Of a DNA stretch of 64,000 nt, positions 4,725-57,751 are shown piece after piece. Source of the stretch: a virus (Duplodnaviria > Heunggongvirae > Uroviricota > Caudoviricetes); IMG/VR virus record IMGVR_UViG_3300013132_000019; one strand, 5' to 3'. Under the pieces are notes generated by a model, which was given only the letters and a program-made list of their open reading frames with translations, was not told the origin of the DNA and did not search any database. The position numbers and the translations under genes are program-made. How positions within the stretch are numbered: position 1 is the first letter of the stretch; every line of letters begins with the position of its first letter.

Positions 4725-5113
<389 letters not shown>

Positions 5114-14687: not shown

Positions 14688-14737
14688 TTTACGTTTTTTT
14701 TAGTTTATGGTACAAATATACGAATTATTTTTCAAAC

Positions 14738-15052: not shown

Positions 15053-15053
15053 A

Positions 15054-17510: not shown

Positions 17511-17653
17511 AGTTTGTCAAGTAACATTACAGCCAAACTAAACCACTCGTCAAAAAATAAAATTAATGGTACTATGCCAATAATTGTTGCAATAATGGTT
17601 AGTGTTGTGGCTAACCATGCAAGAAAACCTATAATTACCGCTAATTCTTTCAT
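17507..17653 (-). CDS. small hydrophobic membrane protein (48 aa, below the ORF-track cutoff): MKELAVIIGFLAWLATTLTIIATIIGIVPLILFFDEWFSLAVMLLDKL
   Basis: Translated by hand from the reverse complement. It fills an otherwise empty 174-bp gap. TATATTTG lies 4 nt upstream of the ATG, which implies a leaderless mRNA. Confidence 0.4.
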   Translation of the reverse strand: MKELAVIIGFLAWLATTLTIIATIIGIVPLILFFDEWFSLAVMLLDKL

Positions 17654-17684
17654 ATTGCAAATATACAAATTATTTTTTAAATAA

Positions 17685-19364: not shown

Positions 19365-19693
19365 GTTGTTTCAATTTCAGTTTTTAATATTATAATTTCG
19401 TTTAAATTATATATTATGTTGTTCGTTGATTTGATATAAAAGTTTAACTTATAACCTCCCCATTTATGATTAACCGTGGGTTTATCGTATGTTGGTGGTT
19501 CAACCTTAACCGACACATCAGATAGATATTTATGGATGTTATAACCTGTTACAGCATCAAAATGTACTGTATGTTCAATATGAACATCTGATATTTCACC
19601 AATGGTTTCACCACCATATTTGGATTTGTATAGAAATTTTCTACCAACCAAATCACGCCTAAGTCCATATCTTATGTTTTCAAACCAATCCAT
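19361..19693 (-). CDS. hypothetical protein (start corrected to MDWFEN; the track extends to 19708 through the promoter box)
   Basis: The track's N-terminal MYICAM is the TATATTTG box read in frame. The box sits 4 nt before the ATG at 19693, which implies a leaderless mRNA. Confidence 0.45.
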   Translation of the reverse strand: MDWFENIRYGLRRDLVGRKFLYKSKYGGETIGEISDVHIEHTVHFDAVTGYNIHKYLSDVSVKVEPPTYDKPTVNHKWGGYKLNFYIKSTNNIIYNLNEIIILKTEIETT

Positions 19694-19750
19694 TGCACAA
19701 ATATACAAAATATATTTTAATTAAACAAAATTTTCCCCATATTTATTATT

Positions 19751-21853: not shown

Positions 21854-22299
21854 TACTTTAATATTTTTGTTTCTCCTAAATATGCGGCACTTACGCCATT
21901 TTCATTTATAACACAGAATTCTGCCGATAAGACTTCCAACCTATTAATTGTTAAATTATCACAAAAAAAACCATGTTTATTAAATGGGTCATATTCAATT
22001 TTTGCTGGTAGTTTATCAATTGCCGTTGTACCCATACCAGATTTTCTCAAGTAGCCAACAATAAAGGCGTGAACATTTCTTTGTTGTTCTTTGATGGCTC
22101 TCTTTTTACCAGATTGGTTAATTAAAAATCTAGGTTTTGACAAACATAATCTTTGTGCGTGAGCAACGACCAGATTATCTTGTTTAATTGAGTACCATTT
22201 ACCTTTTTTATGTAGGTTTCGATAAACTTTAATTGGCTTATCGATATCTATTGACCTATTTTTAAAGGATATGATTATATTATCATTGGCTTCTATCAT
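21853..22299 (-). CDS. hypothetical protein (start corrected to MIEANDN; the track extends to 22314)
   Basis: The MYICIM N-terminus is the promoter box read in frame. TATATTTG sits 4 nt before the ATG at 22299. Confidence 0.45.
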   Translation of the reverse strand: MIEANDNIIISFKNRSIDIDKPIKVYRNLHKKGKWYSIKQDNLVVAHAQRLCLSKPRFLINQSGKKRAIKEQQRNVHAFIVGYLRKSGMGTTAIDKLPAKIEYDPFNKHGFFCDNLTINRLEVLSAEFCVINENGVSAAYLGETKILK

Positions 22300-22316
22300 A
22301 ATGCAAATATACAAAA

Positions 22317-25564: not shown

Positions 25565-26611
25565 TTACAAAAAAACATTATCCGTTTTTTCAAAAAACCA
25601 CAATCTGGCTTTGGTTGATAATGCTGAACTAATGTCCTTTGGTTCAAAACCGTTGCCAGTTATTGTATCAAGTTCTTCTTTAACAACATCTTCAAATATC
25701 CAACGAAGATAATTACCAGTACTCTTTCGTGATATATCCATATGGTTTTCCCTAAGATAATCAAGCCCTTGATTTAACCTTGATTCAGTCAAAAAATTAT
25801 CAACCAGTGAATCTATATTGCTAACTCGTTCAATGTCAATTGGTACTTTGGTTTTGGTCTTACTGCTTTGGTGTTTCTCACCTTTAGATTTAAACCAAAA
25901 CCTAGAATCACCCCAACCTTCAGTAACACAAACAAATACCAAACCCTCACCAGTACCAGATACCCCAAAAGATTTACCAACTGGGCATTCATTCTCAACA
26001 CTATCAACGTAGTCAGAAATCAGTTCAGCCGATTCACTAACATTATTAAAATCAATGTCAATAACGAAAGTTGGGTAATCTAAAATGTTATATATCTTTT
26101 GCTCAGGAATTTTAATATTTTTTAATTCAGAGTCTTTCATCCATAAACCATCAATCTTAATCGCAAAAATAACAAACATTTTTTCAAGCTCGTTCAGGGC
26201 AACACCTTTTTGAATATTACCGCCACACCATTCACCATAGACTTGAATAATCTTATAATCAGAAACGCTACCGTTCCGTTTAATTAAATCGAATATTTTA
26301 TTAACATCGATGGTTGTAACAAATGTAGCAAACCCAGCATTATCTTTTAATGGCGTTATTATATTTGTTCTGGATTGAACTTGAGTTTTGATGTTACCAT
26401 GCTCATTTTTCAATCGAATTATTGACGCATTCGTACCATGTAATTTGATACTGCCACGAAATTTTAACGTTGGTAGAATGCCTTCAGTCTCATCATATAT
26501 TGGTTCACCACTCTCAGTTGTACCTCTAAATCTAATACGATGATTAACCTCCTTAATTACAGTTCTGAGCTGTTCAATTGAAGGGAATTTATAAACTTTT
26601 TCAGTCATCAT
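25565..26611 (-). CDS. RNA ligase, Rnl2 family (348 aa)
   Basis: Motif I KLHGTN corresponds to T4 Rnl2 KIHGTN. YGEWCGGNIQKG resembles Rnl2 FGEFAGPGIQK. Lys-rich motif V near KSKGEKHQSSK. Confidence 0.65.
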   Translation of the reverse strand: MMTEKVYKFPSIEQLRTVIKEVNHRIRFRGTTESGEPIYDETEGILPTLKFRGSIKLHGTNASIIRLKNEHGNIKTQVQSRTNIITPLKDNAGFATFVTTIDVNKIFDLIKRNGSVSDYKIIQVYGEWCGGNIQKGVALNELEKMFVIFAIKIDGLWMKDSELKNIKIPEQKIYNILDYPTFVIDIDFNNVSESAELISDYVDSVENECPVGKSFGVSGTGEGLVFVCVTEGWGDSRFWFKSKGEKHQSSKTKTKVPIDIERVSNIDSLVDNFLTESRLNQGLDYLRENHMDISRKSTGNYLRWIFEDVVKEELDTITGNGFEPKDISSALSTKARLWFFEKTDNVFL

Positions 26612-28876: not shown

Positions 28877-29749
28877 TTAACAAATTAATTCTTTAGATGT
28901 AATAGCTTTTAATTTTTTCAACACACCTTTCTCAATCTGTCTGATTCTCTCCCTTGTTAATGACATATCATCACACTCACTCACCTCTTTAAGTGTCATA
29001 GGTATGTTACCATCAAGACCATACCGTCTAACAATAATCGTCTTTTCGATTGGTTTCATGTTTTCCAATAAACCCATCAAATAATCACCATTATCCGAAT
29101 TATCCAAATAATCTTCTGGTGTCAATTCATCCGAATCAAATAATATATCATGATAAGTCGAGCTATCTTCATCATTACTAATTGGTGAATCCATGGAAGT
29201 GAAGCCAAGTTCAACCAAATCAATCATTATTTTTAGATTTTCAATTTCCTTATCTGTTGATGCGGACTCAATTAGGTCATATACCGTTACAGGTCTACCC
29301 AATTCCTGTTCCAAATCAGATAGTTGTCGTTTGACATTTCTAATATTATCAACCTTATTGATTGGTAATCTTACTGTTCTTGAATTATTAGATATGAATT
29401 GTCGTATATTACGAACAATCCAATATACCGCATAAGTAAAAAACTTATTACCCATCGTAGGGTCAAATTTTTCAGCAGCCTCAATCAAACCAATATTACC
29501 CTCATTAATCAAATCCTCAATGTAAACACCTTCGGTCATATATGATTTAGCCACAGTTATAACAAATCGTAGATTTCTACGTATTAACTCATTTTTAGCA
29601 TCTACATCACCAGCATATGCTTTATATGCACATTCAGCTTCAGCATCAGCACTTTCGAAAAGTTTAATGTTATATATATCTGAAAGATATTGTTTAAGTA
29701 CACCATCACGATTAGTGATGCGTTTTTCTGTTGTATACAGGTTCGCCAT
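28877..29749 (-). CDS. RNA polymerase sigma factor, sigma-70 family (290 aa)
   Basis: Region 2 NLRFVITVAKSY...DLINEGNIGLIEAAEKFDP...YAVYWIVRNI. Region 4 LTRERIRQIEKGVLKKLK. Confidence 0.75.
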   Translation of the reverse strand: MANLYTTEKRITNRDGVLKQYLSDIYNIKLFESADAEAECAYKAYAGDVDAKNELIRRNLRFVITVAKSYMTEGVYIEDLINEGNIGLIEAAEKFDPTMGNKFFTYAVYWIVRNIRQFISNNSRTVRLPINKVDNIRNVKRQLSDLEQELGRPVTVYDLIESASTDKEIENLKIMIDLVELGFTSMDSPISNDEDSSTYHDILFDSDELTPEDYLDNSDNGDYLMGLLENMKPIEKTIIVRRYGLDGNIPMTLKEVSECDDMSLTRERIRQIEKGVLKKLKAITSKELIC

Positions 29750-30181: not shown

Positions 30182-30679
30182 TTAACGTTTTAAGTTATGG
30201 AAGGTTTCCAAGAATATTTCTTTTGATTGTTTTTGTGTCCAACAATCAAAATTATCATTACCCAACATGACGCCATTGAACTCAATATTTAACATCTTTG
30301 AATCAACCTCTTTGACCGAGTTATTCAATGGGTACTCAAAACCATATTTTTCACTTATGGTTTTCATTAACCTATCCTCCATAACCTTATATTCTGGTAA
30401 TAGATTCTTCAATGGTGTTGGTATATCCATAAGATACGCCTCAGAAGCATCGTGCAACAAAGCTTCCAACGCATATTTAGGTTCAATAATCTGAGAACAT
30501 AAAACCGAATGTTGTGCAATACTGTAGAATCTTGGTAGATGACCGCCAAATCTACATTGCATACTCAATGAATGTGCAATATCCTCAATATCAATCATAT
30601 CGACATCAGTATCGATGAAATTGAAATATTTCCCAGATGATGTCCTAATTGAATTAGGTACTAATAATAGTTTGTTCAT
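30182..30679 (-). CDS. HD-domain phosphohydrolase (YfbR-like 5'-deoxynucleotidase type), 165 aa
   Basis: H...HSVL...LLHDASEAY spacing is typical of the HD domain. Confidence 0.55.
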   Translation of the reverse strand: MNKLLLVPNSIRTSSGKYFNFIDTDVDMIDIEDIAHSLSMQCRFGGHLPRFYSIAQHSVLCSQIIEPKYALEALLHDASEAYLMDIPTPLKNLLPEYKVMEDRLMKTISEKYGFEYPLNNSVKEVDSKMLNIEFNGVMLGNDNFDCWTQKQSKEIFLETFHNLKR

Positions 30680-31179
30680 TATTTATTTTTTGGTTTAATT
30701 ACTACTATATATTTATTACCTTCAAAATTAGGTACATTTTCAGCAATACCATACTCTTCAACCTGAACGAGCAAATCCAATAGTATTTTTTGACCCTGTT
30801 CTTGATAATTCATTTCCCGACCCTTAAAGGTTACATAGGCTTTAACTTTATGACCTTTTTCGAGAAACTTTATGACATGATTTAACTTAAATTTAAGGTC
30901 ATTCTCATCAGTATTTGGTGTATACCGCATTTCCTTTATAGGTTTAGGTTTACTCTTTGGTTTATTCTTTTCCTTATTATATTGGAATTTGCTGTAATCC
31001 ATAATCTTACAGATAACGGGTTTTGTACTATCACTCATAAGTACAAGGTCCATACCCATATCTTCAGCTAATTGCATTGCCGATTCAATTGTCATTATAC
31101 CATCTTTAGTACTATCAACATTGTCACCGACCAACCTAACGGTTTTAAATTTAATTTCTTCGTTTATCTTATTAGACAT
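30679..31179 (-). CDS. infC: translation initiation factor IF-3 homologue (166 aa)
   Basis: Aligns along its length with bacterial IF3: VRLVGDN...ESAMQLAEDMGMDLVLMS...KPVICKIMDYSKFQY...YTPNTDENDLKFKLNHVIKFLEKGHKVKAYVTFKGREM. Confidence 0.8.
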   Translation of the reverse strand: MSNKINEEIKFKTVRLVGDNVDSTKDGIMTIESAMQLAEDMGMDLVLMSDSTKPVICKIMDYSKFQYNKEKNKPKSKPKPIKEMRYTPNTDENDLKFKLNHVIKFLEKGHKVKAYVTFKGREMNYQEQGQKILLDLLVQVEEYGIAENVPNFEGNKYIVVIKPKNK

Positions 31180-31233
31180 TATTTGATTTTTTTGTTCGAT
31201 ACAAATTTAAGAAAAAAATATTAACTGACAAAA

Positions 31234-32814
31234 TTATTTTAGCGTTGTATATTCCAAACCATTGTCTGTCTGAAATAATACGATGTGTTGAAACTTTCCC
31301 AACCTATTAACAATACCATGAGCTTGTACCCATGTTGACGCTCCGCGCACATATCTTAAATTCAAATATGTGCTTGTACCAACACTTACAGCACCACCAA
31401 CCCTACCAATAGTGTGTGAATGTCCAGTAACAGTCTTTGTAGCCAATTTACTGAATTGATTTATACTACCTCTGCTACCAGAAGCACCCAAATGACCATG
31501 ATTTGACATCAAATAACCTTTAACTGAAATATTATCGTCATAACCTAAACATTTCATTTTAGGGTAATTTAAATTGATGATGTATGGTACGATACCATTT
31601 TTAGCTTTACCATTCAACTTAGCCAATGAATACTCCATATATGGAATCGCATTTTTAAATGTATTCATTTTACGCCAATCAGTTTCGTTGAGGAATTTAT
31701 CAATATGTTCATCATGATTAGAACGAACAATATATGTATCAAAAGGTTCCAATGGTTTTAACCATTCAATCATTTCATTAATCTCTTCAGATAAATCATT
31801 TCTACCAGAAGCTTCAAGTTCATGCTGTAAAAACGGGTCTTTAAGATTATGGTGTGAAATACTTTCACTATCTATTATATCATGAATAAAAACCTTCTTA
31901 GGTGGTAGTTTTTTAAAAATGTCATTAAACGTTATATTTGTAACATTAGGGTCACAATTTCTAACATGAATGTCACCCAAAGCTATTGCCTCAACACCAC
32001 TTTCCGCTGATACCACACCGTCTTTAACTCCATAAAACAAATCAATGAATTCACCAGTTCTATCATTTGCTGAAACTTGTCTAAAAAAGAAAGTGTTATC
32101 ATCCTTTATTTCAACAATGGCAAAACCATATGTGTGATGAAATTCACCCTTCTTACCAGCTTTTGAATCAGTATAGTTTGGTTTCGTTACAGCACCAGTT
32201 GTAAACATTATTTTTGGTTTGGTCGTATCCATTACTGGAACAGTTTTTAGTTCCAATCTCGGATGTCCAACAACACAAGAATGGTCACCTGTCATACCCT
32301 CAAGCCCTTGAAGTGGTTGTGAAGCTGTGGGTTGAATCTTAACATCTGATAATACCGAAACCCTATTATTTAAATCGTGTCGATTTAACGTTAAATATTT
32401 AGTTATTGATGAATCCCACCAATCATCAGCCTCTTGATTAATTGTGAATACGCTGGTCGGATTCTTATATCTAAACGGTATAACTAAAATTTCAGCATCT
32501 AAAAATTCAGCATACGATTCCATATTGGTTAAGAATTGTCTATGAACCTTTGTAGCGTTTTGTGCCGAAGTAATTAGAAATATCTTTTTTGATTGGTCAT
32601 GTTCACGCTTTTTGGCCATCGAAAGTACTTCAGGTTCAACAACCGTTGGTGTTTTGGATAAACCTAATTTAATTAACCATTTTCTAGTGGTTCTTTCACT
32701 TATACCAGCAAAAGTCTTAATCTTATCAATTCTATCATCCCACGACATGTCTTTATTGAGAAAAATGTCTTTGATGTTATCGATATCATTATCTGTTAAG
32801 TCTTTAAATTTCAT
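31234..32814 (-). CDS. large metallophosphoesterase-domain protein with an N-terminal HTH-like region (526 aa)
   Basis: Calcineurin-like motifs GDIHV, NHDEH and GHSHT in the C-terminal half. ISERTTRKWLIKLGL near the N-terminus. Confidence 0.5.
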   Translation of the reverse strand: MKFKDLTDNDIDNIKDIFLNKDMSWDDRIDKIKTFAGISERTTRKWLIKLGLSKTPTVVEPEVLSMAKKREHDQSKKIFLITSAQNATKVHRQFLTNMESYAEFLDAEILVIPFRYKNPTSVFTINQEADDWWDSSITKYLTLNRHDLNNRVSVLSDVKIQPTASQPLQGLEGMTGDHSCVVGHPRLELKTVPVMDTTKPKIMFTTGAVTKPNYTDSKAGKKGEFHHTYGFAIVEIKDDNTFFFRQVSANDRTGEFIDLFYGVKDGVVSAESGVEAIALGDIHVRNCDPNVTNITFNDIFKKLPPKKVFIHDIIDSESISHHNLKDPFLQHELEASGRNDLSEEINEMIEWLKPLEPFDTYIVRSNHDEHIDKFLNETDWRKMNTFKNAIPYMEYSLAKLNGKAKNGIVPYIINLNYPKMKCLGYDDNISVKGYLMSNHGHLGASGSRGSINQFSKLATKTVTGHSHTIGRVGGAVSVGTSTYLNLRYVRGASTWVQAHGIVNRLGKFQHIVLFQTDNGLEYTTLK

Positions 32815-32828: not shown

Positions 32829-33887
32829 TTATTTGTTATTTTGAATACGGCTTAAACTAATTCCGTAATCGTTTGCAAGTATCGCTTTACCAATTTCTGA
32901 CGCAACACTTATTGTCCTTAATTTATTATGCTTTACCACATTCAATGAATTTGAACCCATCACATACGTTAATGAAGATTTTTCAATTCTATCAACGGCA
33001 TTACCACTTAAAATCAAATGAGTTGTCACAGCGGATACGCTTTTCGCGCCCAATTCAATCATTTTGTCAGCGTTGGCACATAAGGTTCCAGCCGTATCAC
33101 ACATATCATCCAATAAGATTACATTTTTATCCTTAACATCACCAATTATTATAACCTCATCAACTTTATTGTCCTCAACTCTGTTCTTATGCGCGAATAC
33201 AAATGGTAAATTAACACCGTATTTATCCCTAATGCGATTCTGCATTTTAACAACACGTTTACCACCACCAGCATCAGTAGCAGCCAATACAACATCACCT
33301 AATCTGGCGTGTTCATTATGAATGAATTCAGTAAACAAATATTGACCCTTGATGTTTGTAACTGGAATATCAAAAAAACCTTCAATCTGGTCGGCATGTA
33401 ACTCCATCGTAATTATACCTGTTGCACCCAACATCTCTAATTTCTTAGCCAATACCTTAGCACCAATTGAACCTCTGTGTTGGTCTCTTTTATCTTGACG
33501 TGAGTATGGAAAATACGGTAATATCGGTATAATCTCATGCGCTGATGCTCGTCTTGCAGCATCAATGGCAAACTCCAACTTAATTATTTCATCAGAATTA
33601 ATCGGTGTTGTTAATAGATAAACCTTTTTACCTCGTATTGACTTATTAAAATCAACGTTCAATTCCCCATCAGAGAATTTTCTATTGGTCATTTCACCAA
33701 CAGAAATCGGTTCTGTGAAACCATTACCAGTAAAGTCAACAATTTCTCTCAATAGGTCAAGCCTACCATCGACAGAGAATATAATAGAATTAGTCTTTTC
33801 CATGTATTTTTTTAACAGTATATTTCCAACCAGAGTCCGAATTGACTTCGAATAATTGAGCCATCTTATTGGCTGATTCATAATCAT
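32829..33887 (-). CDS. prs: ribose-phosphate pyrophosphokinase (PRPP synthetase); the probable true start is the MEKTNSII Met at 33803
   Basis: FSDGELNV, PYFPYSRQDKR, ELHADQIEGFFDIPV and IIGDVKDKNVILLDDMCDTAGTL match Prs signatures (PRPP-binding loop DDM.DT.GT). The internal start removes the overlap with 33790..34002. Confidence 0.85.
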   Translation of the reverse strand: MIMNQPIRWLNYSKSIRTLVGNILLKKYMEKTNSIIFSVDGRLDLLREIVDFTGNGFTEPISVGEMTNRKFSDGELNVDFNKSIRGKKVYLLTTPINSDEIIKLEFAIDAARRASAHEIIPILPYFPYSRQDKRDQHRGSIGAKVLAKKLEMLGATGIITMELHADQIEGFFDIPVTNIKGQYLFTEFIHNEHARLGDVVLAATDAGGGKRVVKMQNRIRDKYGVNLPFVFAHKNRVEDNKVDEVIIIGDVKDKNVILLDDMCDTAGTLCANADKMIELGAKSVSAVTTHLILSGNAVDRIEKSSLTYVMGSNSLNVVKHNKLRTISVASEIGKAILANDYGISLSRIQNNK

Positions 33888-34002
33888 CGAACTCCATCAC
33901 TTCACTTAAACCATCCAATAAGATAATTGGTACTGTAACGCCAAATTGATTCTTAGTGTTCTTGATAATAATATAACTTTCCTTCATCCTACAAATTAAC
34001 AA
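33790..34002 (-). CDS. hypothetical small protein (70 aa)
   Basis: ORF. Plausible only if prs starts at 33803. Confidence 0.3.
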   Translation of the reverse strand: MLICRMKESYIIIKNTKNQFGVTVPIILLDGLSEVMEFDDYESANKMAQLFEVNSDSGWKYTVKKIHGKD

Positions 34003-34008
34003 ATTATT

Positions 34009-34359
34009 TTAATAGTTTACAACTGTTACCTTAATATTTTTTTCGCTGGCTAAATTAATCATATGGTTTGTTCCCTTTGATTTTTCATCCCAGAACGCTA
34101 TCAGTGCATCAGCATAATCAGCCATTTCAGCATTCCGCTTATAACCTGCACTTTTACCGAATTTATCCCATTGTGCCGCAAACTCTTTAACTGGGTATCC
34201 TCGTTCCTTAGCATATCTAAGACCTAACGAATCCGCACCTTTGGCTAAACCAGAGACAATCTCAATCTCTGATTGTTGCGATAACATATGGTCACAGGTT
34301 TTGCAGAGTAATTCGTAATTATCGAAATCTCTACCACCAGCAATAATAACTTTAAACAT
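34009..34359 (-). CDS. SLOG-superfamily protein (DUF2493/YspA-like), 116 aa
   Basis: IIAGGRDF...SGLAKGADSLGLRYAKERGY...FAAQWDKFGKSAGYKRNAEMA...ALIAFW is the DprA/LOG-like Rossmann signature. Confidence 0.5.
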   Translation of the reverse strand: MFKVIIAGGRDFDNYELLCKTCDHMLSQQSEIEIVSGLAKGADSLGLRYAKERGYPVKEFAAQWDKFGKSAGYKRNAEMADYADALIAFWDEKSKGTNHMINLASEKNIKVTVVNY

Positions 34360-34718
34360 TACTTCGGACTATAAGGTTTCCAACCTAATCTATCGTGATA
34401 CTTTCTCTTATAGTGTCCAGTTTCAAAAGTACCTAAAGATAATACAATCTCCAGAGCATTAGGTAACTCTTTGAATAACTCAAAGTATTCTTCTTCCTTA
34501 GCTTCACTCAATGGTTTATATTCGCCCATTGGGTCAAAATCTTCTGGCTTACCGTTTAAAATTATATCGATATCCTCATAAAGATTACTACCACCAAACG
34601 GTGAATTAAAACCATATTCATCCGTTACAGTAATATTATAATCCCTATCCATTCTAAACCTCAAAGCTTTCATAAGCTTTATATGCTCATCCTTCAATTC
34701 AAATTTTATTACACTCAT
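34359..34718 (-). CDS. hypothetical protein (119 aa)
   Basis: ORF. Confidence 0.45.
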   Translation of the reverse strand: MSVIKFELKDEHIKLMKALRFRMDRDYNITVTDEYGFNSPFGGSNLYEDIDIILNGKPEDFDPMGEYKPLSEAKEEEYFELFKELPNALEIVLSLGTFETGHYKRKYHDRLGWKPYSPK

Positions 34719-35149
34719 ATTAATCGTTTTTTTAAAAAATTATTTAATTCAGTCCAATCAGTTTCAGCATCAAAACCAGCTTTATCATCCATCAGGACAT
34801 TATAATATGGTTTCTTATCATAACAACCATAACCATTTAGATTGGTCGTTACTTCAGAATTTTCGTTTATATAGTCCCATTTAATTCCCAAACCATCAAA
34901 AAACCTAATGTATTCATCAATCTCATGTGGATGACTACAGGTATACATTATTATTTTAACATCCTTAGCTTCTTGAAGCATTTTAAGCCCCTCTAACGCA
35001 CCATCATACATTTCTGTTGGTATGTTACCATATTGGTAGTTTGGTTTAATTAACGTTGAATGTAGGTCAATAAACACATAAATATATGGCCATTGTTTGC
35101 GTTCCATTTCTTTGAACGCATTAATAAATGCTTTAACGACTGCTATCAT
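34715..35149 (-). CDS. HAD/NIF-like hydrolase-fold protein with a degenerate DLHSTL motif (144 aa)
   Basis: FIDLHSTL resembles the NIF/HAD motif I LDLDETL, with the second Asp replaced by His. Confidence 0.3.
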   Translation of the reverse strand: MIAVVKAFINAFKEMERKQWPYIYVFIDLHSTLIKPNYQYGNIPTEMYDGALEGLKMLQEAKDVKIIMYTCSHPHEIDEYIRFFDGLGIKWDYINENSEVTTNLNGYGCYDKKPYYNVLMDDKAGFDAETDWTELNNFLKKRLI

Positions 35150-35475
35150 AATTTCTCTTCTATTACCTTTTTAATAACATCACCATGACAATCTTTTGGC
35201 TTGCAAAAACAAACCAAATTAACATCACCAAGTTTAGCCATTTTGTGAATCTTATTCAATTCTTGACAAATATAGTTATTTTTATTTGAAATTGCAAGCC
35301 TTAAATAATTTTCGTAACTTTCGATAGCTTCTTCACGAGAAGCGCATTGAAATTCAGCCTTTGTCGCTTCAAGTTTTTTAGAACCTGTGAATGGATTACC
35401 TAAAGGTGAACCTCTACCAATGTATACATCGTTATCAGTCGGTTGATGTTTGTACTTGTTAACTACATTAATCAT
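35146..35475 (-). CDS. DUF4326-family protein (109 aa)
   Basis: YIGRGSPLGNPF...C.C.P..CHGDVI signature. Confidence 0.45.
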   Translation of the reverse strand: MINVVNKYKHQPTDNDVYIGRGSPLGNPFTGSKKLEATKAEFQCASREEAIESYENYLRLAISNKNNYICQELNKIHKMAKLGDVNLVCFCKPKDCHGDVIKKVIEEKL

Positions 35476-38215: not shown

Positions 38216-39559
38216 TCACAAGGGCAAACCATCATCATTGTGATTTTGAACAAATCCAATTCTTTTTGCTCGATTAACCTGACTCGAATAGAATCCCTTA
38301 TATGAAGACCTAATTAAACCTAATGTATGTGCCATTGTCCACTCTTCACCATCCTCTTCAGCATCCAAATACATTTCATTTAGGTTGTTAGCTAAATTAG
38401 CTATAAATGCACCAGTTATCTTAGCCTTTTTACCATCAATATTACCTGTAAGAGCATCAAAAACTTCTTTTACTTGCCATCTTTCATTCAAATGTATCTT
38501 GCAGACCTTTATAACCGCTTCATCGGAAAGATAATCAAAATCAATTATGGCATTAAATCTACCTGGTCTCTCAGCCGCCTCATCAACTAATGACTTGTCA
38601 TTTGTTGAGGCAAGAATACTTATCTGTCGTTTCTTTACACCATCAAAGAAGTTTAGAAATTCACCAAGTACGTTGGTGTAATTGCCCTTTTGTCGTGAAC
38701 CAATGAATAAATCAATGTCATCCATGATAATCGTACCATTATCAAAAATTTCACAAGACGTCAATATGGTTCTAAGGTCATCGATATTATTGAATCTTGG
38801 TATAACAAAGGTCACTTGAGGTGTCAATTCTGATATTACCTTTCTAATCAATTCAGTTTTACCAGTACCTGGCACACCATTTAATAGAATCCGCATGTTA
38901 CGACCACGTTTTAGTCGTTTAATAAAATGCTTCATAAAGGTTTCTTGGGCTTCACTTAAAATCAATTCGTTAACGACATCTTTAACCTCTACAATCTTTA
39001 CACCCTCAAACATGCCGTTGCGAATTTCAACCTCCAAACACTTACCCTTGAATCTTGAATTATTAAAGGCGACTTTCTTTATATTCTCAACCATATCTTC
39101 CAATTTGTTAATTGGTATGGTTTTTTTACATGTAAATGAAATTTCAGTTATATATCGGTCATTTCGGTCGAAATAAGCGCCTGTTTGAAAATACATCTGG
39201 TTATCTGGTTCGGAATCAAGCTTAACTTGAAACCACCAGCCTCTACTATTATCAAAAGTTCCGTTCATGAAGAATTTTTTATTATAAAGCCCACCATAAG
39301 CTTCAACCGTTACCCCGTTATTTGGCCCATTCTTATATGTGTCAAAAAGGTATTGATTAATAATGCCCAACTCAACTGGACTTATAACCCTCTCCATAAA
39401 ATTATCCAAATCATATATCATATCAGGATAATCTTCAGGATATTCATCAAATTCATCCAACTCGTAATTTTCAATTTCACTTTTAATTCCGTCTAACCGT
39501 TTCAATAAAATGGCAGCACCTTCCACGCTTAATTCATTTTCTTTTTCTAAACTCATCAC
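38216..39559 (-). CDS. AAA+ ATPase (447 aa)
   Basis: Walker A GVPGTGKTE, Walker B IIMDDIDLF, and NAIIDFDYLSDEAV in the C-terminal region. Confidence 0.65.
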   Translation of the reverse strand: MMSLEKENELSVEGAAILLKRLDGIKSEIENYELDEFDEYPEDYPDMIYDLDNFMERVISPVELGIINQYLFDTYKNGPNNGVTVEAYGGLYNKKFFMNGTFDNSRGWWFQVKLDSEPDNQMYFQTGAYFDRNDRYITEISFTCKKTIPINKLEDMVENIKKVAFNNSRFKGKCLEVEIRNGMFEGVKIVEVKDVVNELILSEAQETFMKHFIKRLKRGRNMRILLNGVPGTGKTELIRKVISELTPQVTFVIPRFNNIDDLRTILTSCEIFDNGTIIMDDIDLFIGSRQKGNYTNVLGEFLNFFDGVKKRQISILASTNDKSLVDEAAERPGRFNAIIDFDYLSDEAVIKVCKIHLNERWQVKEVFDALTGNIDGKKAKITGAFIANLANNLNEMYLDAEEDGEEWTMAHTLGLIRSSYKGFYSSQVNRAKRIGFVQNHNDDGLPL

Positions 39560-40014
39560 ATTAAACTTTTAATAATTAAACTTAATTCCTTACCGTCATA
39601 TTGACCAGCATAATTCACTTTAAAATAATTCATTATTGCACCAATGTTTACGTTACCAGCACTTTCTTCAGATAACACAAATTCCTTTACTATTTCAATC
39701 AACTCAAAATTTGATAATTGTTTGGGTAGATATCCTTCCAAAACCGTAATTTCAAACTCATCATTAGTGGTCTCTTTAACGCCTTGAATCGATTTCTTAA
39801 CCAATGCAACAATATCATTATCTGATAATTCAACCTTACCCTTAGATGTTTGTTCATTACGTTCAATCTCACCTTTCAATACTCGAAGTACCCCCAACTT
39901 TTGAGATTCTTTGTTTTTCATGGCATTTTTTATATCACCATTAATTTTATTTTTTAATGTCATTTTAATATATTTTTTTTCTTTTTTGTGAATAATAATA
40001 GAACGATAACGCAA
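39556..40014 (-). CDS. yqeY: GatB/YqeY-domain protein (the probable start is MTLKNK at 39963)
   Basis: GVLRVLKGEIERNE and VLEGYLPKQLSNFELIEIVKEFV align with YqeY SVIRMLKAAIKN and ILESYLPEQLSEEEL. Confidence 0.65.
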   Translation of the reverse strand: MRYRSIIIHKKEKKYIKMTLKNKINGDIKNAMKNKESQKLGVLRVLKGEIERNEQTSKGKVELSDNDIVALVKKSIQGVKETTNDEFEITVLEGYLPKQLSNFELIEIVKEFVLSEESAGNVNIGAIMNYFKVNYAGQYDGKELSLIIKSLM

Positions 40015-41623: not shown

Positions 41624-41864
41624 TTGGGTCGAGATTTAAGTGTTTGATTACAGCATCAATCAAGATTTCTTTCTTATGAAAACCATTCAAATCTGATAAC
41701 CTAATCAACTGAGCCAAACCTTCGGTTAAAGTCTTAATATCCTCAAATAATTGTGCCTTGCGCTCATTAACATCCTCTGATAAAACAAAATCCTCCGTCT
41801 TACCAACAATCAATGGTTTATCCTTTCTATCCGTATCAATATCTACTACTACTATATTTTTCAT
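41610..41864 (-). CDS. hypothetical protein (84 aa)
   Basis: ORF. TATATTTG sits 4 nt before the ATG. Confidence 0.45.
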   Translation of the reverse strand: MKNIVVVDIDTDRKDKPLIVGKTEDFVLSEDVNERKAQLFEDIKTLTEGLAQLIRLSDLNGFHKKEILIDAVIKHLNLDPNADK

Positions 41865-41899
41865 GTCACAAATATATAAATCAAATTTGAATAATACAA

Positions 41900-44343: not shown

Positions 44344-44754
44344 TTAATCTTTTGGTCTGATATATTTGTAAGTAACATTAAAAATATTAATTTTGTCTAA
44401 GGGTTGGTTAGTTCCCCCGAATCTTATTACACCGACTTCTTCTTCCCTAAAATCTATTAAAACATGAAATACGCCATTAATTCCTATATTTCTAGTCCCA
44501 GCATCTAACAGTACAATGTTTGCTATGCTGGATGGGTCGGTAGGTTGCCAAACTTCTTCACTGAAAATAATTCGGGCCTCTCTGTCGTGAAAGATACTGT
44601 TTAACCAATTGGTCATGAATTCCATTTTCCGTTCCTTAGTCATTTTACGACCATAGAAAAAGGATTGGCAACGATAAGTGAATTCTTGTATCTTTTGTAT
44701 TGTCTCCGCGACATCGGCACTATATTGTAATTGAATGTTAATTAAATCTTTCAT
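44344..44754 (-). CDS. hypothetical protein (136 aa)
   Basis: ORF. TATATTTG sits 4 nt before the ATG. Confidence 0.5.
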   Translation of the reverse strand: MKDLINIQLQYSADVAETIQKIQEFTYRCQSFFYGRKMTKERKMEFMTNWLNSIFHDREARIIFSEEVWQPTDPSSIANIVLLDAGTRNIGINGVFHVLIDFREEEVGVIRFGGTNQPLDKINIFNVTYKYIRPKD

Positions 44755-44796
44755 AGAGCAAATATATAAATTATTTTATTAATAAACAAATTTTTG

Positions 44797-44871
44797 TTCC
44801 CCCAGCTGGACTCGAACCAGCACCCCTTAATTAAAAGTTAAGTAGTCTAAACCAATTGAACCTATGAGGGA
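44797..44871 (-). tRNA. tRNA-Lys (anticodon UUU)
   Basis: Hand fold. Acceptor TCCCTCA/TGGGGGA, anticodon arm CTTAA-CTTTTAA-TTAAG, T-arm CTGG-TTCGAGT-CCAG. Confidence 0.6.
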
Positions 44872-44879
44872 ATTTAAAA

Positions 44880-44953
44880 TGGAGCCGCATGAGAGAGTCG
44901 AACTCTCGCCTTCTGATTGGAAGTCAGATGTGCTGCCGTAACACCTATGCGGC
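44880..44953 (-). tRNA. tRNA-Gly (anticodon UCC), CCA encoded
   Basis: Acceptor GCCGCAT/ATGCGGC, anticodon arm TCTGA-CTTCCAA-TCAGA, T-arm GAGAG-TTCGACT-CTCTC, followed by TCCA. Confidence 0.6.
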
Positions 44954-44968
44954 AAAAAAAATCAACTG

Positions 44969-45040
44969 AGCACCCACTCAGGCTTGAACTGAGGACTGAA
45001 GATTACAAATCTACCGTTTTCCCAACTAAACTATGGGTGC
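44969..45040 (-). tRNA. tRNA-Thr (anticodon UGU); one U-U mismatch in the anticodon stem
   Basis: Acceptor GCACCCA/TGGGTGC, D-arm GTTT..AAAC, anticodon loop TTTGTAA, T-arm CTCAG-TTCAAGC-CTGAG. Confidence 0.5.
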
Positions 45041-45048
45041 ATTAATTG

Positions 45049-45121
45049 TGGGGAACAATAGACTCGAACTATATTGCGGTTCGCTTTTACAGAGCGTCCG
45101 ACCAACCCTGGGCGATTCCCC
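45049..45121 (-). tRNA. tRNA, probably Tyr (anticodon GUA) with a short variable arm
   Basis: Acceptor GGGGAAT/GTTCCCC, anticodon loop CTGTAAA, T-loop TTCGAGT. Position 8 is C, which is unusual. Confidence 0.4.
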
Positions 45122-45197
45122 TATTTTGTATTATTTTTATAATTAGAGCCTGTGCGTTATCTATAATATGACATCACGCTTTATCTCTAAAGTCAAG

Positions 45198-45270
45198 TTG
45201 CCCCGCTAGGTCTCGAACCTAGACTCTTCTGCTTCAAAAACAGACGTGTTCCCAATTACACCACAGGGCA
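45198..45270 (-). tRNA. tRNA-Gln (anticodon UUG)
   Basis: Acceptor TGCCCTG/CGGGGCA, anticodon arm TCTGT-TTTTGAA-GCAGA, T-arm CTAGG-TTCGAGA-CCTAG. Confidence 0.55.
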
Positions 45271-45307
45271 ATTTAATTATTATCCCGACAATTTGTCGGG
45301 ATTAATG

Positions 45308-45382
45308 TCGGGAGAGTGGGATTCGAACCCACGAACCGATACGTCCAAGGTACCGTTGTATAGCCATCTGCATAACCTCCCG
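45308..45382 (-). tRNA. tRNA-Pro (anticodon UGG)
   Basis: Acceptor CGGGAGG/TCTCCCG, anticodon arm GGTAC-CTTGGAC-GTATC, T-arm GTGGG-TTCGAAT-CCCAC. Confidence 0.55.
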
Positions 45383-52561: not shown

Positions 52562-53315
52562 AGTTTAATTGATTTTTAATTAAGTTAATAAAATTGATTT
52601 CGGCTCTATTGATTTTTAAATAATTTTCAACAACAAATGGGAACATCCATATTGGCGCATGTTGCATGATGAACTTCTTTAACATCTTTGAATATGCAAT
52701 CAAATAATGTTTATTCTTATACCGTTCATAAGCCATAACATACACTTCTTCCCTAATAACATCAAGTTTCTCATTTAATGATAACCCATTGAATTTATCT
52801 TCAGATATTTCAACGTCCTTACCGTCAACCAATATTTTTTGATATGTTGGTTCTGGATTGATTAATGTATGTAAATGGTCATGCTCATGTTCATCATAAT
52901 TGATAGCGTTAGTGAAAAATTCATCCTTTGTCATATTAAGATTGCTCCTTCTATGTCTTGGGTGAAAATCTTTCCAATAATCATATAACTCCAATAACAG
53001 ATTATAATCATATTGACAACCCTTTTTCAATAAGAACTGCACATCCCACATATGTTTATCCCAATTGATGTTGAAAAATAAATGAGACATCTTAAGTGTC
53101 AATAACATATTCGGGTCAATATACTTCTGACCATCTGAGATATGCTTGAATAAAATTGGATTTTCCAAATACTCAACCTCTCTGGTGGTTTTAAGACCTT
53201 CAGTTGATTCAACAGCAATGTCGATATCTTTTGGTTCCCTATTAAAGTCAGGGAAATGATACCTCATTGCTGTTGAACCTATTATCAACTCTTTATTGAT
53301 TGTCTCATTTTGCAT
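52548..53315 (-). CDS. nucleotidyltransferase-fold protein (start corrected to MQNETINK), with a pol-beta-like GS...D.D motif
   Basis: IGSTAMRYHFPDFNREPKDIDIAV, plus the His-rich EHEHDHLH. The track start MYICTM is the promoter box read in frame. Confidence 0.4.
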   Translation of the reverse strand: MQNETINKELIIGSTAMRYHFPDFNREPKDIDIAVESTEGLKTTREVEYLENPILFKHISDGQKYIDPNMLLTLKMSHLFFNINWDKHMWDVQFLLKKGCQYDYNLLLELYDYWKDFHPRHRRSNLNMTKDEFFTNAINYDEHEHDHLHTLINPEPTYQKILVDGKDVEISEDKFNGLSLNEKLDVIREEVYVMAYERYKNKHYLIAYSKMLKKFIMQHAPIWMFPFVVENYLKINRAEINFINLIKNQLNYELN

Positions 53316-53351
53316 GGTACAAATATACAAAATATTTTTAACTATGCAAAT

Positions 53352-53792: not shown

Positions 53793-53811
53793 AATAATAA
53801 ATATTTTAAAG

Positions 53812-53884
53812 TGTAGCGTATCGGCCTCGAACCGATGACTCCGCCTTGCAAGGGCAGTATTATAGCCAGCTTAACTAACACCAC
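53812..53884 (-). tRNA. tRNA-Ala (anticodon UGC) with a G3:U70 pair
   Basis: Acceptor GTGGTGT/ACGCTAC, anticodon arm CTGCC-CTTGCAA-GGCGG, T-arm ATCGG-TTCGAGG-CCGAT. Confidence 0.6.
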
Positions 53885-53909
53885 AATAAGTGCCAAAAAT
53901 ATGTCTAGG

Positions 53910-53982
53910 CGGACGCCACGGGGGTTGAACCCGCAATCTCAGCCGTGACAGGGCCGTATGTTACCAACAACACCTCGCGTCC
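53910..53982 (-). tRNA. tRNA-Asp (anticodon GUC)
   Basis: Anticodon arm CGGCC-CTGTCAC-GGCTG, T-arm GCGGG-TTCAACC-CCCGT. Confidence 0.55.
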
Positions 53983-54035
53983 GTTAATATCCGTCTTTCC
54001 AGATTGTCAAAAGGCTTTAAAACTCTATATTTTCA

Positions 54036-54109
54036 GTAGTCCGTATGGGATTTGAACCCATGACTCCGCTGTGAAAGAGCGGTGACTTAAACCACTTGTC
54101 GAACGGACC
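54036..54109 (-). tRNA. tRNA-Glu (anticodon UUC)
   Basis: Acceptor GGTCCGT/ACGGACT, anticodon arm CCGCT-CTTTCAC-AGCGG, T-arm ATGGG-TTCAAAT-CCCAT. Confidence 0.6.
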
Positions 54110-54115
54110 GTTTTG

Positions 54116-54188
54116 TGTGATGGGTTGGAATCGAACCAACATTATCGCTTTTTCAGAGCGACACCTTGACCAACTTGGTAACCACCAC
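54116..54188 (-). tRNA. tRNA-Phe (anticodon GAA)
   Basis: Acceptor GTGGTGG/CCATCAC, anticodon arm TCGCT-CTGAAAA-AGCGA, T-arm GTTGG-TTCGATT-CCAAC. Confidence 0.6.
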
Positions 54189-56991: not shown

Positions 56992-57051
56992 TTGCGAACT
57001 TTATAATAAATAGTTTAGTAATTCTACAAATGTACTAAAATTTAATTAATG

Positions 57052-57129
57052 TGGGCAAGACGGGAATCGAACCCGTATATCCTTTACTTTTGAGGTAAAG
57101 AGGCTTCACCAGCTTTCCATCACTCGCCC
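57052..57129 (-). tRNA. tRNA with a Leu anticodon (CAA) but class-I architecture (short variable arm, enlarged D-loop)
   Basis: Acceptor GGGCGAG/CTTGCCC, anticodon arm TTTAC-CTCAAAA-GTAAA, T-arm ACGGG-TTCGATT-CCCGT, D-loop containing AAAGCTGGTGAAG. Confidence 0.5.
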
Positions 57130-57139
57130 AAATTTTTAG

Positions 57140-57217
57140 TAGGGAAGACGGGAGTCGAACCCGTATATCCTTTGATTTTAAGTCAAAGAGGCTTCACCAG
57201 CTTTCCATCACTTCCCC
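57140..57217 (-). tRNA. paralogous tRNA with a Leu anticodon (UAA), same atypical architecture
   Basis: Acceptor GGGGAAG/CTTCCCT, anticodon arm TTTGA-CTTAAAA-TCAAA, T-arm ACGGG-TTCGACT-CCCGT. Confidence 0.5.
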
Positions 57218-57447
57218 TTAACTACCTTATCAAAAAAGCCTTTTGGCATATTAGCGTTCATCGTCATAAACTCTTCTTCTGTTTGAATACCTTCGTTCGC
57301 TTCCCACATACTTTTACAGTATTCTATAAAGGCATTACCATGGTTTTTGGTCATGTATTTGAAGTCATACTTGAAGTTGTTTACGTCAGAATCATAATCC
57401 ATTGTTTCAATGAACTTATCCCATGCAACTTTTTTAATTTCACGCAT
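57208..57447 (-). CDS. hypothetical protein (79 aa)
   Basis: ORF whose 3' end overlaps the 5' end of the adjacent tRNA by a few nt. The start may lie later. Confidence 0.35.
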   Translation of the reverse strand: MREIKKVAWDKFIETMDYDSDVNNFKYDFKYMTKNHGNAFIEYCKSMWEANEGIQTEEEFMTMNANMPKGFFDKVVKGK

Positions 57448-57472
57448 AATTAATTTATTAACTCATTATCTG

Positions 57473-57550
57473 TACGGGTAGAGGGAGTCGAACCCCCAAA
57501 TCAGCAGTTCCTAAGACTGCTCGGCTTCACCAAACTTTCCGCATACCCGC
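57473..57550 (-). tRNA. third paralog with a Leu anticodon (UAG), same atypical architecture
   Basis: Acceptor GCGGGTA/TACCCGT, D-stem CGG/CCG with a 14-nt loop, anticodon arm GCAGT-CTTAGGA-ACTGC, T-arm GGGGG-TTCGACT-CCCTC. Confidence 0.5.
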
Positions 57551-57559
57551 ATTTTTTTG

Positions 57560-57631
57560 TACCCCAGACTGGAATCGAACCAGTTCTCCCGCCATGTAAA
57601 AACGGAGCGCTAACCATTACACCACTGGGGC
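57560..57631 (-). tRNA. tRNA-Val (anticodon UAC)
   Basis: Acceptor GCCCCAG/CTGGGGT, anticodon arm CCGTT-TTTACAT-GGCGG, T-arm ACTGG-TTCGATT-CCAGT. Confidence 0.55.
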
Positions 57632-57751
57632 TTACTTGAGAAGATGGTCAGATTCGAACTGACGTAAACATGATTTGCAGTCATGTGGCTAATTCCAACT
57701 CACCCACACCTTCAATTATTTTATTTCAAAGAACCGATAAAAAACAAAAAA

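Follow-up and report, generated by a model that had tools for sequence, protein, structure and literature searches.

Phage-encoded IF3 is already known as a kind and is not new with the copy described here. The initial annotation of this locus took viral IF3 to be rare. It is indeed uncommon, with 101 carriers among 50,697 GenBank phage records, but it is well documented: it has appeared in survey lists since about 2012-2020, among them the huge-phage and jumbo-phage surveys (Al-Shayeb 2020; Iyer 2021), and it is represented by PHROG 9787. The published reading of the copies in uncultivated huge phages is that host translation is intercepted or redirected (Al-Shayeb et al. 2020). Three of these copies (LR756500, LR756501 and LR756504; PHROG 9787) are also full-length, start with ATG and show 40-43% identity to the protein studied here. 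LR756504 has two further features in common with the window (the whole 64,000-nt stretch of DNA that was analyzed), a GHKVK motif and a leaderless promoter layout. However, the huge-phage proteins have a full-length, Lys/Glu-rich linker and were placed outside the short-linker clade by neighbour-joining. Among cultured jumbo phages, IF3 is also annotated in Rak2/GAP32-like Enterobacteria phages (e.g. PHA46 and Sharanji) and in Agrobacterium phage Atu_ph07, all phages of more than 300 kb. These proteins differ from ours in their lower identity (28-38%), their long separate branches and their Proteobacteria hosts, and they appear to be independent acquisitions.

The nearest cellular relatives, at 39-48% identity, are the IF3 proteins of Bacteroidota (e.g. 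Flavobacterium johnsoniae), which have the same two-domain architecture, fold and invariant residues. Compared with them, the phage copy starts with ATG instead of ATA, lies outside the thrS-infC-rpmI-rplT context, has no basic N-terminal tail and carries a proline-rich linker that is four residues shorter. Two motifs differ as well: GHKVK against G(A/S)KVK in Bacteroidota, and GREM against a sequence that is mostly GRSI there. Mitochondrial IF3 (IF3mt), which works where leaderless messages dominate (PMC11775629), is a homologue with a weak match to the phage IF3 in sequence and fold. It has N- and C-terminal extensions and only 18-20% identity, whereas the phage IF3 is typical of the bacterial type. 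What sets this copy apart is its membership of a clade with a short proline-rich linker, an ATG start behind a putative Bacteroidota-type promoter of its own, and many predicted leaderless neighbours.

Identity and setting of the phage IF3

The C-terminal domain of IF3 is the 30S-binding and anti-association domain; the N-terminal domain touches the elbow of the initiator tRNA in bacteria (PMC9723500). The ORF in the window is a complete two-domain bacterial-type IF3, with family scores far above chance level. It matched Pfam IF3_N with 80.6 bits (cutoff 26.9) and IF3_C with 95.7 bits (cutoff 34.8). The NCBIfam equivalog model for infC, TIGR00168, gave 159.7 bits against a curated cutoff of 60, aligning residues 2-166 of 166 with model positions 4-170 of 170. 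The PHROG 9787 profile was matched at 8.9e-41 (residues 3-164 against positions 4-167 of 168) and E. coli IF3 (PDB 8jsg) at 1.9e-33 over both domains. All of these agree with the initial annotation, which had called an IF3 homologue with both domains and had named a profile assignment to a different fold as evidence against it. The profile search returned the IF3 family; the alternative Pfam identities mIF3 and PHP were weak matches under their cutoffs. An AlphaFold2 model had a mean pLDDT of 87.7, and its C-domain superposed on 1tig with a TM score of 0.94 (rmsd 1.3 Å), while its N-domain gave 0.82 on 1tif (1.7 Å) and 0.86 on 6o6d.

In the alignment, 74 columns are at least 90% conserved among bacterial IF3; the phage protein keeps 54 of them, and the replacements were mostly conservative. 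The invariant E. coli R25 is R15 here, R66 is K58 (K also in Bacteroidota) and Y75 is Y67. The C-domain residues, whose loss would have spoken against the initial annotation, are retained as well: D94, K98, R121 and E122 align with E. coli D106, K110, R133 and E134. Thus, R25, Y75, D106, K110 and R133 in E. coli numbering are all present. The function-tied E. coli positions beyond the N-domain are known from the mutational literature; a literature search on fidelity mutations of E134 gave nothing usable, so nothing here is built on that position. Roles of the N-domain residues were taken from PMC9723500.

The phage linker has 16 residues where E. coli and Bacteroidota have 20, as counted between the conserved motifs F and KE. 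It is lysine-rich with four prolines (KPKSKPKP), and residues 72-81 were predicted to be non-helical in the AlphaFold2 model (pLDDT about 73). The signatures of the phage clade are this shorter linker, in the form KPKxKPKP, and the residues K108, H110, E122 and M123. The GREM loop resembles that of E. coli; at the GRSI positions, Bacteroidota have S in 71% and I in 97%. Shortening the linker of E. coli IF3 relaxed start-site decoding and lowered accuracy (PMC8266586). The short proline-rich linker and the clade-specific C-domain residues of the phage protein could alter its activity.

The window is phage DNA. It probably belongs to a large phage, likely a jumbo phage, that infects Flavobacteriia/Bacteroidota, with the host placed to phylum/class level. 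The neighbours of IF3 annotate as phage-like in PHROG and Pfam (Table 1). In relatives, the A1-like gene is the conserved left neighbour of IF3 and the sigma factor the conserved right-hand neighbour of the block. The start codon of the dmp-like gene and the stop codon of IF3 overlap by one base (TAATG). A1 and dmp serve pre-early host-takeover functions in T5. The best cultured matches of the A1-like protein are from Flavobacteriia phages, and A1-like relatives sit on IMG/VR contigs of 274-368 kb, one of which carries IF3 too. No match to GenBank phages was found by megablast of window positions 28-34 kb, and therefore there is no close cultured relative. The thrS-infC-rpmI-rplT neighbourhood is absent, unlike in the true bacterial locus L009, as expected because the copy is viral.

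Related loci (L002, L004 and L006/L007) share the synteny around IF3 with the window at 54-80% protein identity. Synonymous sites were saturated among these relatives (pS at least 0.67), with pN of 0.12-0.36 for IF3, so that dN/dS was not calculable for most pairs and serves as a sign of constraint only. The gene appears to be under purifying selection. Because it also keeps the same syntenic place in diverged relatives, it cannot be a stray piece of host DNA. In a search of 185,579 species genomes, the 80 top matches were all from Bacteroidota (39-48% identity), and no bacterial copy in that set exceeded 48%. By neighbour-joining, the phage IF3 sequences cluster together, with a modest bootstrap of 50% for the core group. 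We propose that the phage gene goes back to an infC of Bacteroidota type that was acquired long ago.

The window carries other genes related to translation. The YqeY-domain protein that was annotated at 39556..40014 is a real family member, with 83.7 bits on PF09424 (cutoff 27; profile positions 1-142 of 143) and 6.4e-23 on PHROG 1460. Its start was probably misplaced: position 40014 is a TTG, and the ATG at 39963, 51 nt further in, is preferred because homologues in L004 and L006 (130-135 aa) match the resulting size. The count of more than 17 tRNAs was too high, as ARAGORN found 14 and Rfam 16, two of which have long inserts. The window also encodes Thg1 and two RNA ligases. A Pfam scan of nearly all other window ORFs, run as concatenates, revealed no more ribosomal or translation proteins (e.g. 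bS21); its 'Serglycin' matches were spurious products of the GS linker. As the initial annotation suggested, the phage may remodel host translation.

Table 1. Coordinates of the features discussed, in order along the window.
Feature	Position	Strand	Basis or remark
Leaderless start, 48-aa hydrophobic ORF	17651..17665	minus	predicted
Leaderless start, 110-aa ORF	19691..19705	minus	predicted
Leaderless start, 148-aa ORF (L5 gp82-like)	22297..22311	minus	predicted
Phage sigma-70-family factor	28877..29749	minus	Pfam Sigma70_r2 and Sigma70_r4; PHROG 351
T5 dmp-like deoxynucleoside 5'-monophosphatase, downstream of IF3	30182..30679	minus	PHROG 318, 8.8e-63
IF3 coding sequence	30679..31179	minus	166 aa; ATG 31179-31177, TAA 30681-30679
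IF3 C-terminal domain	30688..30939	minus	residues 81-164; PF00707
IF3 interdomain linker	30937..30984	minus	residues 66-81; contains KPKSKPKP; alignments
IF3 N-terminal domain	30961..31167	minus	residues 5-73; PF05198
Predicted IF3 5' leader (GAACAAAAAAATCAAATA)	31180..31197	minus	18 nt, A-rich, without Shine-Dalgarno; from promoter geometry
Predicted IF3 promoter	31197..31236	minus	sequence reading and pattern scan
T5 A1-like 'DNA transfer protein', upstream of IF3	31234..32814	minus	PHROG 1745, 1.9e-141
YqeY/GatB-tail-like protein	39556..39963	minus	135 aa from ATG; PF09424, PHROG 1460
Leaderless start, 84-aa ORF	41862..41876	minus	predicted
Leaderless start, 136-aa ORF	44752..44766	minus	predicted
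tRNA array 1 (Lys, Gly, Thr, Gln, Pro)	44796..45382	minus	
Leaderless start, 255-aa ORF (DUF7275)	53313..53327	minus	predicted; TATATTTG-N4-ATG
tRNA array 2 (Ala, Asp, Glu, Phe)	53811..54188	minus	
tRNA array 3 (three Leu, Val, Cys)	57051..57713	minus	

Start codons, promoters and leaderless messages

The E. coli infC gene has AUU as its autoregulatory start codon. In 35 of 49 Bacteroidota infC loci, an in-frame ATG upstream of the conserved N-domain was absent and ATA codons were found instead. The infC genes of Flavobacteriales and Bacteroidales have no in-frame ATG, and their AUA start makes the host IF3 self-limiting. For F. johnsoniae, the ATA start has been shown by experiment and the autoregulation was inferred (PMC7797042). 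E. coli IF3 represses non-canonical starts and leaderless initiation (PMC9723500). Every phage IF3 that we examined, in the window clade and in the LR7565xx huge phages, starts with ATG.

In the Bacteroidota sigma-A consensus, about 19 nt separate a -33 TTG from a -7 box TAnnTTTG (PMC7366714, PMC9723704), the box lying at -12 to -5 from the transcription start (PMC9723704). Upstream of the phage IF3 we found a -33 TTG within TAATTTTG (31236-31229), a 19-nt spacer and the -7 box TAAATTTG (31209-31202), which places the predicted transcription start at 31197. The layout, leader included, is kept in relatives with 80% identity (L004 and L005). The IF3 genes of the distant relatives L002 and L006 lack the same layout and may be co-transcribed, or may have a leader of just 3-4 nt.

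The leaderless starts reported in the initial annotation held up as predictions. In the window, the coding strand has 33 copies of TATATTTG and the other strand six, and in a pattern scan all 26 full promoter-plus-ORF matches were on the coding strand. The arrangement TATATTTG-N4-ATG was found six times, always on the coding strand, against 0.16 expected. At five of these sites the ORF that follows has 84-255 aa; at ATG 17653, the sixth, it has 48 aa and is hydrophobic. The motif is the sigma-A -7 box; given the position of that box, four nucleotides before ATG put the predicted transcription start on the A of ATG, and leaderless mRNAs are predicted. Relaxing the pattern gave two more candidates (ATG 41369 and 40343), which fall within ORFs upstream of them or overlap these, and which were not counted as robust.

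Altogether, 6-8 of the 26 promoter-proximal ORFs in the window (23-31%) have a -7 box 4-5 nt before the ATG. The same layout was seen at 14 of 32 sites in related IF3-carrying loci and at four of seven in LR756504, compared with four of 77 in bacterial loci and with leaderless shares of 3.7-5.5% in published host transcriptomes (PMC9723704, PMC7366714). LR756500 and LR756501 were uninformative, with hardly any sigma-A-type promoters in the 50 kb sampled. Among the IF3-less controls (Panino, elemoD and phi4:1) the count was 2/18, and Cellulophaga phi4:1, a Flavobacteriia phage, itself has 2/10. The difference between phages with IF3 (28/68) and without it (2/18) gave P = 0.024 in small, non-independent samples. 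The link between IF3 and the leaderless layout is thus weak: it is weakened, though not removed, because the layout also occurs in an IF3-less phage.

Proposed role and alternative explanations

We think it fairly probable that this IF3 is functional in a large Bacteroidota phage, and that it gives a feedback-free early supply which reshapes initiation on host ribosomes. Judged from sequence, early supply without feedback would be its most likely function. The gene has stayed within a constant group of putative early genes (A1-like, IF3, dmp-like and next the phage sigma factor), and early in infection the phage IF3 would be made beyond the throttle of the host feedback loop. Extra IF3 on host 30S subunits would keep them split from 50S, giving a larger initiating pool. 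It would also reject non-AUG starts more strictly, so that host infC and similar host messages would be translated less. As a result, AUG-initiated phage messages would be favoured. A further effect on the many leaderless messages of the phage itself is possible.

That last effect leads to a more speculative idea, which we consider rather doubtful: that the phage IF3 works together with the unusually frequent leaderless early genes as a single system, either a clock or a variant tuned to initiation on leaderless messages or those lacking a Shine-Dalgarno sequence. The clock would work as follows. Leaderless immediate-early genes would be read by 70S ribosomes, and accumulating phage IF3 would then split the 70S and reject leaderless messages in favour of leadered middle and late ones. 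The high leaderless shares in the window, in related IF3 loci and in LR756504, set beside the low shares in bacterial loci and host transcriptomes, are consistent with such a timer, as are the 18-nt leader predicted for the IF3 message of the window and the blocking of leaderless initiation by IF3 in E. coli (PMC9723500). However, this action of IF3 is known only from E. coli, the transcription starts are predicted, in L002 and L006 even the IF3 message may have almost no leader, and the weak association and the layouts in phi4:1 also count against it; we regard a timer as unlikely. The variant version, in which a clade-specific IF3 would tolerate or promote leaderless or leader-poor phage messages, perhaps by giving 30S complexes a stability that they do not gain from the host IF3, seems less likely still. 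Its appeal lies in the clade signatures (the KPKxKPKP linker, K108, H110, E122 and M123), in the E. coli-type GREM loop and in two published results: F. johnsoniae 30S initiation complexes were stabilized in vitro by E. coli IF3 but not by F. johnsoniae IF3 (PMC7797042), and a shorter linker relaxes start-site decoding in E. coli (PMC8266586). Nevertheless, the invariant residues of bacterial IF3 are all kept, which makes ordinary activity the simpler expectation, and an extended proline-rich linker may bridge the same distance as a longer helix.

The factor might also serve as a back-up where the phage degrades host DNA and thereby halts host gene expression, replacing a host IF3 that is no longer made or has been inactivated by defence. 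The position of the gene between the A1 and dmp homologues, overlapping the start of the latter, fits this, as do the tRNAs, Thg1 and the RNA ligases as parts for repair or replacement of the translation apparatus. There is no indication, however, that host IF3 is unstable or targeted, and a back-up overlaps with the feedback-free supply rather than excluding it; as a separate explanation we give it little credence. By far the least plausible reading is that the gene is a neutral passenger, a recent functionless host fragment, or that the window is bacterial and carries the infC of the cell itself. The phage protein does pass the bacterial infC equivalog model. This reading is contradicted by the identity ceiling of 48% to bacterial copies, the missing thrS/rpmI/rplT context, the phage genes next to IF3, the persistence of the gene, under constraint, at one place in relatives as distant as 54% identity, and the origin of these relatives from IMG/VR viral contigs.

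The phage copy offers three testable contrasts: ATG against the host AUA start, the short proline-rich linker, and a share of about a quarter to a third of leaderless layouts where hosts have about 5%. For F. johnsoniae, initiation has been reconstituted in vitro (PMC7797042). The phage IF3 can be tested directly in that system, which would bear on the question raised in that study of whether IF3 is different on Bacteroidota ribosomes. If either version of the system combining IF3 with leaderless genes were true, a viral IF3 would for the first time have an assigned role, and there would be an experimental handle on the working of IF3 in a phylum whose ribosomes ignore the Shine-Dalgarno sequence.

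The IF3 gene and its phage setting

We confirmed that the minus-strand ORF, initially annotated as IF3 with both N- and C-domains, encodes IF3. In the 166-aa product, Pfam IF3_N covered residues 5-73 (80.6 bits) and IF3_C residues 81-164 (95.7 bits). The NCBIfam infC equivalog TIGR00168 matched the whole length (159.7 bits, cutoff 60), and PHROG 9787, "translation initiation factor", matched at 8.9e-41. E. coli IF3 (PDB 8jsg) aligned across both domains at 1.9e-33. An AlphaFold2 model (input alignment of 53 sequences) had a mean pLDDT of 87.7. A different fold was rejected because both modelled domains superposed on IF3 structures, the C-domain on 1tig (TM 0.94, rmsd 1.3 A) and the N-domain on 1tif (TM 0.82) and 6o6d (TM 0.86).

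The window has a G+C content of 32% and about 120 tightly packed ORFs, of which almost all run on the minus strand. Phage-typical genes include a sigma-70-family factor, a T5 dmp-like dNMP phosphatase and a T5 A1-like protein; others encode PRPP synthetase, NAMPT, an NMNAT-Nudix protein, TnpB, two RNA ligases, Thg1, a cREC_REC protein and YqeY. The YqeY gene had been reported previously with its start at TTG 40014, where the longest ORF opens. The gene stands, but its homologues and A-rich upstream sequence point to ATG 39963 as the likely true start, with 39964-40014 being the stretch before it. More than 17 tRNAs had also been claimed; the counts reach only 14 (ARAGORN) or 16 (Rfam, two with long inserts). 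Nothing among the annotated genes of the window looks like the cellular thrS-infC-rpmI arrangement; a true bacterial homologue (L009) does have it.

The A1-like neighbour had its best cultured matches in Flavobacteriia phages: Maribacter phage Panino (43%), Flavobacterium elemo phages (44%) and Cellulophaga phages (44%). It was 48-49% identical to proteins of IMG/VR contigs of 274-368 kb, in one of which IF3 and the A1-like gene are 8 kb apart. Therefore, the source is a large, probably jumbo, phage of Flavobacteriia/Bacteroidota. No close cultured relative was found among GenBank phages.

Several further features of the window were observed (see the table). The position of PRPP synthetase is kept in relatives. 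The related locus L006/L007 has TnpB at 14509-15666, near its IF3 block, and in another related locus (L002, 14389-15839) a HisRS-like fragment of 212 aa comes after Thg1. The motif AGATTCnyTwCAGCAA was matched seven times in total (0.65 expected). Each intergenic copy follows, at 25-75 nt, a sigma-A-type promoter with no ORF under its control, and one is about 170 nt upstream of TnpB. The predicted 5′ end of the transcript at 60640 is a tRNA 5′ half (GGTGAGGTAGCTCAGTGGTAGAGCAC). These copies may be a small-RNA family or remnants of IS ends.

Coordinates of the IF3 gene and other features of the window
Feature	Position	Strand	Remarks
IF3 gene	30679..31179	-	ATG start
NAD+ salvage set	32829-38173	-	PRPP synthetase, NAMPT, NMNAT-like/Nudix protein; adjoins IF3 block
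Tandem family	1144-5113	-	about 10 small paralogous proteins, 72-115 aa; repeats of form YDSNGNxIYYENSxGYWYKREYD; no Pfam match
tRNA/RNA repair genes	11228-11947, 18306-18776, 25565-26611, 62744-63874	-	Thg1-like tRNA-His guanylyltransferase, cREC_REC protein, RNA ligases PF09414 and Rnl1-type PF09511
Integrase-like ORF	22317-22916	-	199 aa; phage-integrase N-terminal SAM-like domain and only last ~50 residues of catalytic domain; looks truncated or decayed
ORF-free region	48180-48980	-	tRNA-like genes with long inserts between D-arm and T-arm
T-arm-like fragments	48180-48250	-	
Rfam tRNA match	48286-48388	-	103 nt, 37.4 bits
Rfam tRNA match	48589-48719	-	131 nt, 32.1 bits
Third tRNA-like copy	~48850-48978	-	by eye
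Structured in appearance	49000-49430		no Rfam match
16-nt motif, intergenic	45777-45792, 51855-51870, 58052-58067, 60577-60592	-	AGATTCnyTwCAGCAA
TnpB	50508-51689	-	OrfB_IS605 and Cas12f1-like TNB domain; within phage early region

Origin and variant features of the phage IF3

In a collection of 5.8 billion proteins, the closest relatives were metagenomic proteins (99%, about 80% and 48-57% identity), followed by Bacteroidota bacterial IF3 (43-46%). The best 80 matches among 185,579 species genomes were all from Bacteroidota (39-48%). Contigs of the closer relatives share the gene order YqeY, AAA, ..., SLOG, PRPP synthetase, (sigma), A1-like, IF3, ..., sigma-70; other relatives lie in different, still phage-like contexts. 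In the 80%-identical pair, pS was 0.72 (synonymous sites saturated) and pN only 0.12; the remaining pairs had pN of 0.24-0.36. Saturated pS with low pN indicates long-standing purifying selection. Both a neutral passenger gene and a bacterial origin of the DNA run counter to the synteny, to the signal of selection and to the absence of any close bacterial copy. Neighbour-joining trees placed phage IF3 apart from bacterial IF3, with a modest core bootstrap of 50%. The simplest history is that phages took the gene once, long ago, from a Bacteroidota-type host and that it then diverged within them.

Viral IF3 had been called rare. It is indeed uncommon, with matches in 101 of 50,697 GenBank phage records, yet it has already been described (Al-Shayeb et al.), and the IF3 of Atu_ph07 was mentioned by Iyer et al. 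2021. Among the matched records are the huge phages LR756500-LR756504, Rak2/GAP32-like jumbo phages and Atu_ph07, and a few short records probably reflect host contamination. In the tree, the window IF3 falls in a short-linker clade of uncultivated sequences only. The published huge-phage copies lie outside this clade, and those of enterobacterial and Agrobacterium phages form separate long branches. Since phage IF3 is already known from GenBank records and surveys, the novelty is modest, although the window copy adds variant features.

Of the 74 alignment columns with conservation of 90% or more in bacterial homologues, the protein retains 54, and the differences are mostly conservative. R15 corresponds to E. 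coli R25, which is invariant and contacts the initiator tRNA (PMC9723500). Y67 (Y75 in E. coli) is also retained, and K58 (R66) has the Bacteroidota state. In the C-domain, D94, K98, R121 and E122 likewise match E. coli D106, K110, R133 and E134. K108 and H110 make a GHKVK motif in the phage clade. A loop of this clade has the E. coli form GREM, whereas Bacteroidota mostly have GRSI. Neither the window protein nor its closest relatives have the basic tail seen at the N-terminus of Bacteroidota IF3. Counted between the F and KE motifs, both conserved, the phage-clade linker is 16 residues long instead of 20 and reads KPKxKPKP; residues 72-81 were non-helical in the model. As shortening of the E. 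coli linker is reported to impair start-site decoding (PMC8266586), the short linker is a plausible functional difference.

Promoter, start codon and leaderless messages

Upstream of the IF3 gene we found TAATTTTG-N19-TAAATTTG-N22-ATG, a putative promoter that matches the Bacteroidota sigma-A type (TTG at -33, TAnnTTTG at -7; PMC7366714). The -7 box spans -12 to -5 (PMC9723704), and from this geometry transcription is predicted to start at 31197, leaving an 18-nt A-rich leader with no Shine-Dalgarno sequence. The layout is kept in the 80%-identical relatives, but not in more distant ones. The dmp-like gene start overlaps the IF3 stop codon (TAATG).

Among 49 Bacteroidota infC loci, 35 had no in-frame ATG before the conserved N-domain; in its place was an IAI motif with ATA codons. 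Every locus whose title names Flavobacteriales, or a family or genus within it, is among the 35, as are all Bacteroidales loci except one, while most Chitinophagales-type loci had an ATG start. This agrees with the ATA start of F. johnsoniae infC, shown experimentally and apparently autoregulated (PMC7797042), and extends that single experimental case. Every phage IF3 examined, in the window clade and the LR7565xx huge phages, has an ATG start. Because of this ATG, against the host ATA, the phage gene can be read from its sequence as lying outside the feedback loop limiting host IF3.

We counted 33 copies of the motif TATATTTG on the coding strand and 6 on the opposite one, mostly intergenic and with TTG about 19 nt upstream. 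It is the -7 box of sigma-A-type promoters rather than a ribosome signal. The arrangement TATATTTG-N4-ATG occurred six times against 0.16 expected; five of these start ORFs of 84-255 aa and one a 48-aa hydrophobic ORF. With the box at -12 to -5, the N4 spacing predicts transcripts beginning at the A of ATG, in line with the leaderless starts claimed earlier. We counted promoters (TTG-N17-21-TAnnTTTG) that precede an ORF of 50 aa or longer, taking a spacing of 3-5 nt as leaderless-type. The window had 8/26 (6 without two that overlap upstream ORFs), related IF3-carrying loci 14/32, huge phage LR756504 4/7, locus L104 2/3, bacterial infC neighbourhoods 4/77 and IF3-less Flavobacteriia phages 2/18. 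Relative to hosts, leaderless-type spacing was strongly enriched (28/68 against 4/77, P = 1e-7). The difference from IF3-less phages was weak (P = 0.024), the samples being small and non-independent. Leaderless shares in hosts are 5.5% in F. psychrophilum and 3.7% in B. thetaiotaomicron (PMC9723704, PMC7366714).

Possible roles of the phage IF3

The first interpretation of the gene is supported, once its rarity, the number of tRNAs and the YqeY start are corrected. The function of IF3 in phages cannot be definitively stated, according to a 2025 paper (PMC11895373). The best-supported reading is that the gene would provide an ordinary, active IF3 from a host-type promoter, free of IF3 feedback. 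Made early, it would raise the ratio of IF3 to 30S, keep ribosomal subunits apart and impose stricter rejection of non-AUG starts, host infC among them. AUG-initiated phage messages would thereby be favoured. We infer that phage IF3 is unrestrained and host infC repressed.

Other readings may be rivals or refinements. Phage IF3 might act as a timer, shutting off the phage's own leaderless early messages, or be a variant of altered specificity for initiation without a leader or Shine-Dalgarno sequence. It might also be a simple back-up supply after host shut-off, which its place between the A1-like and dmp-like genes would favour. The interest lies in the phage ATG against the host ATA and in the enrichment of leaderless-type starts; each is open to direct experiment.
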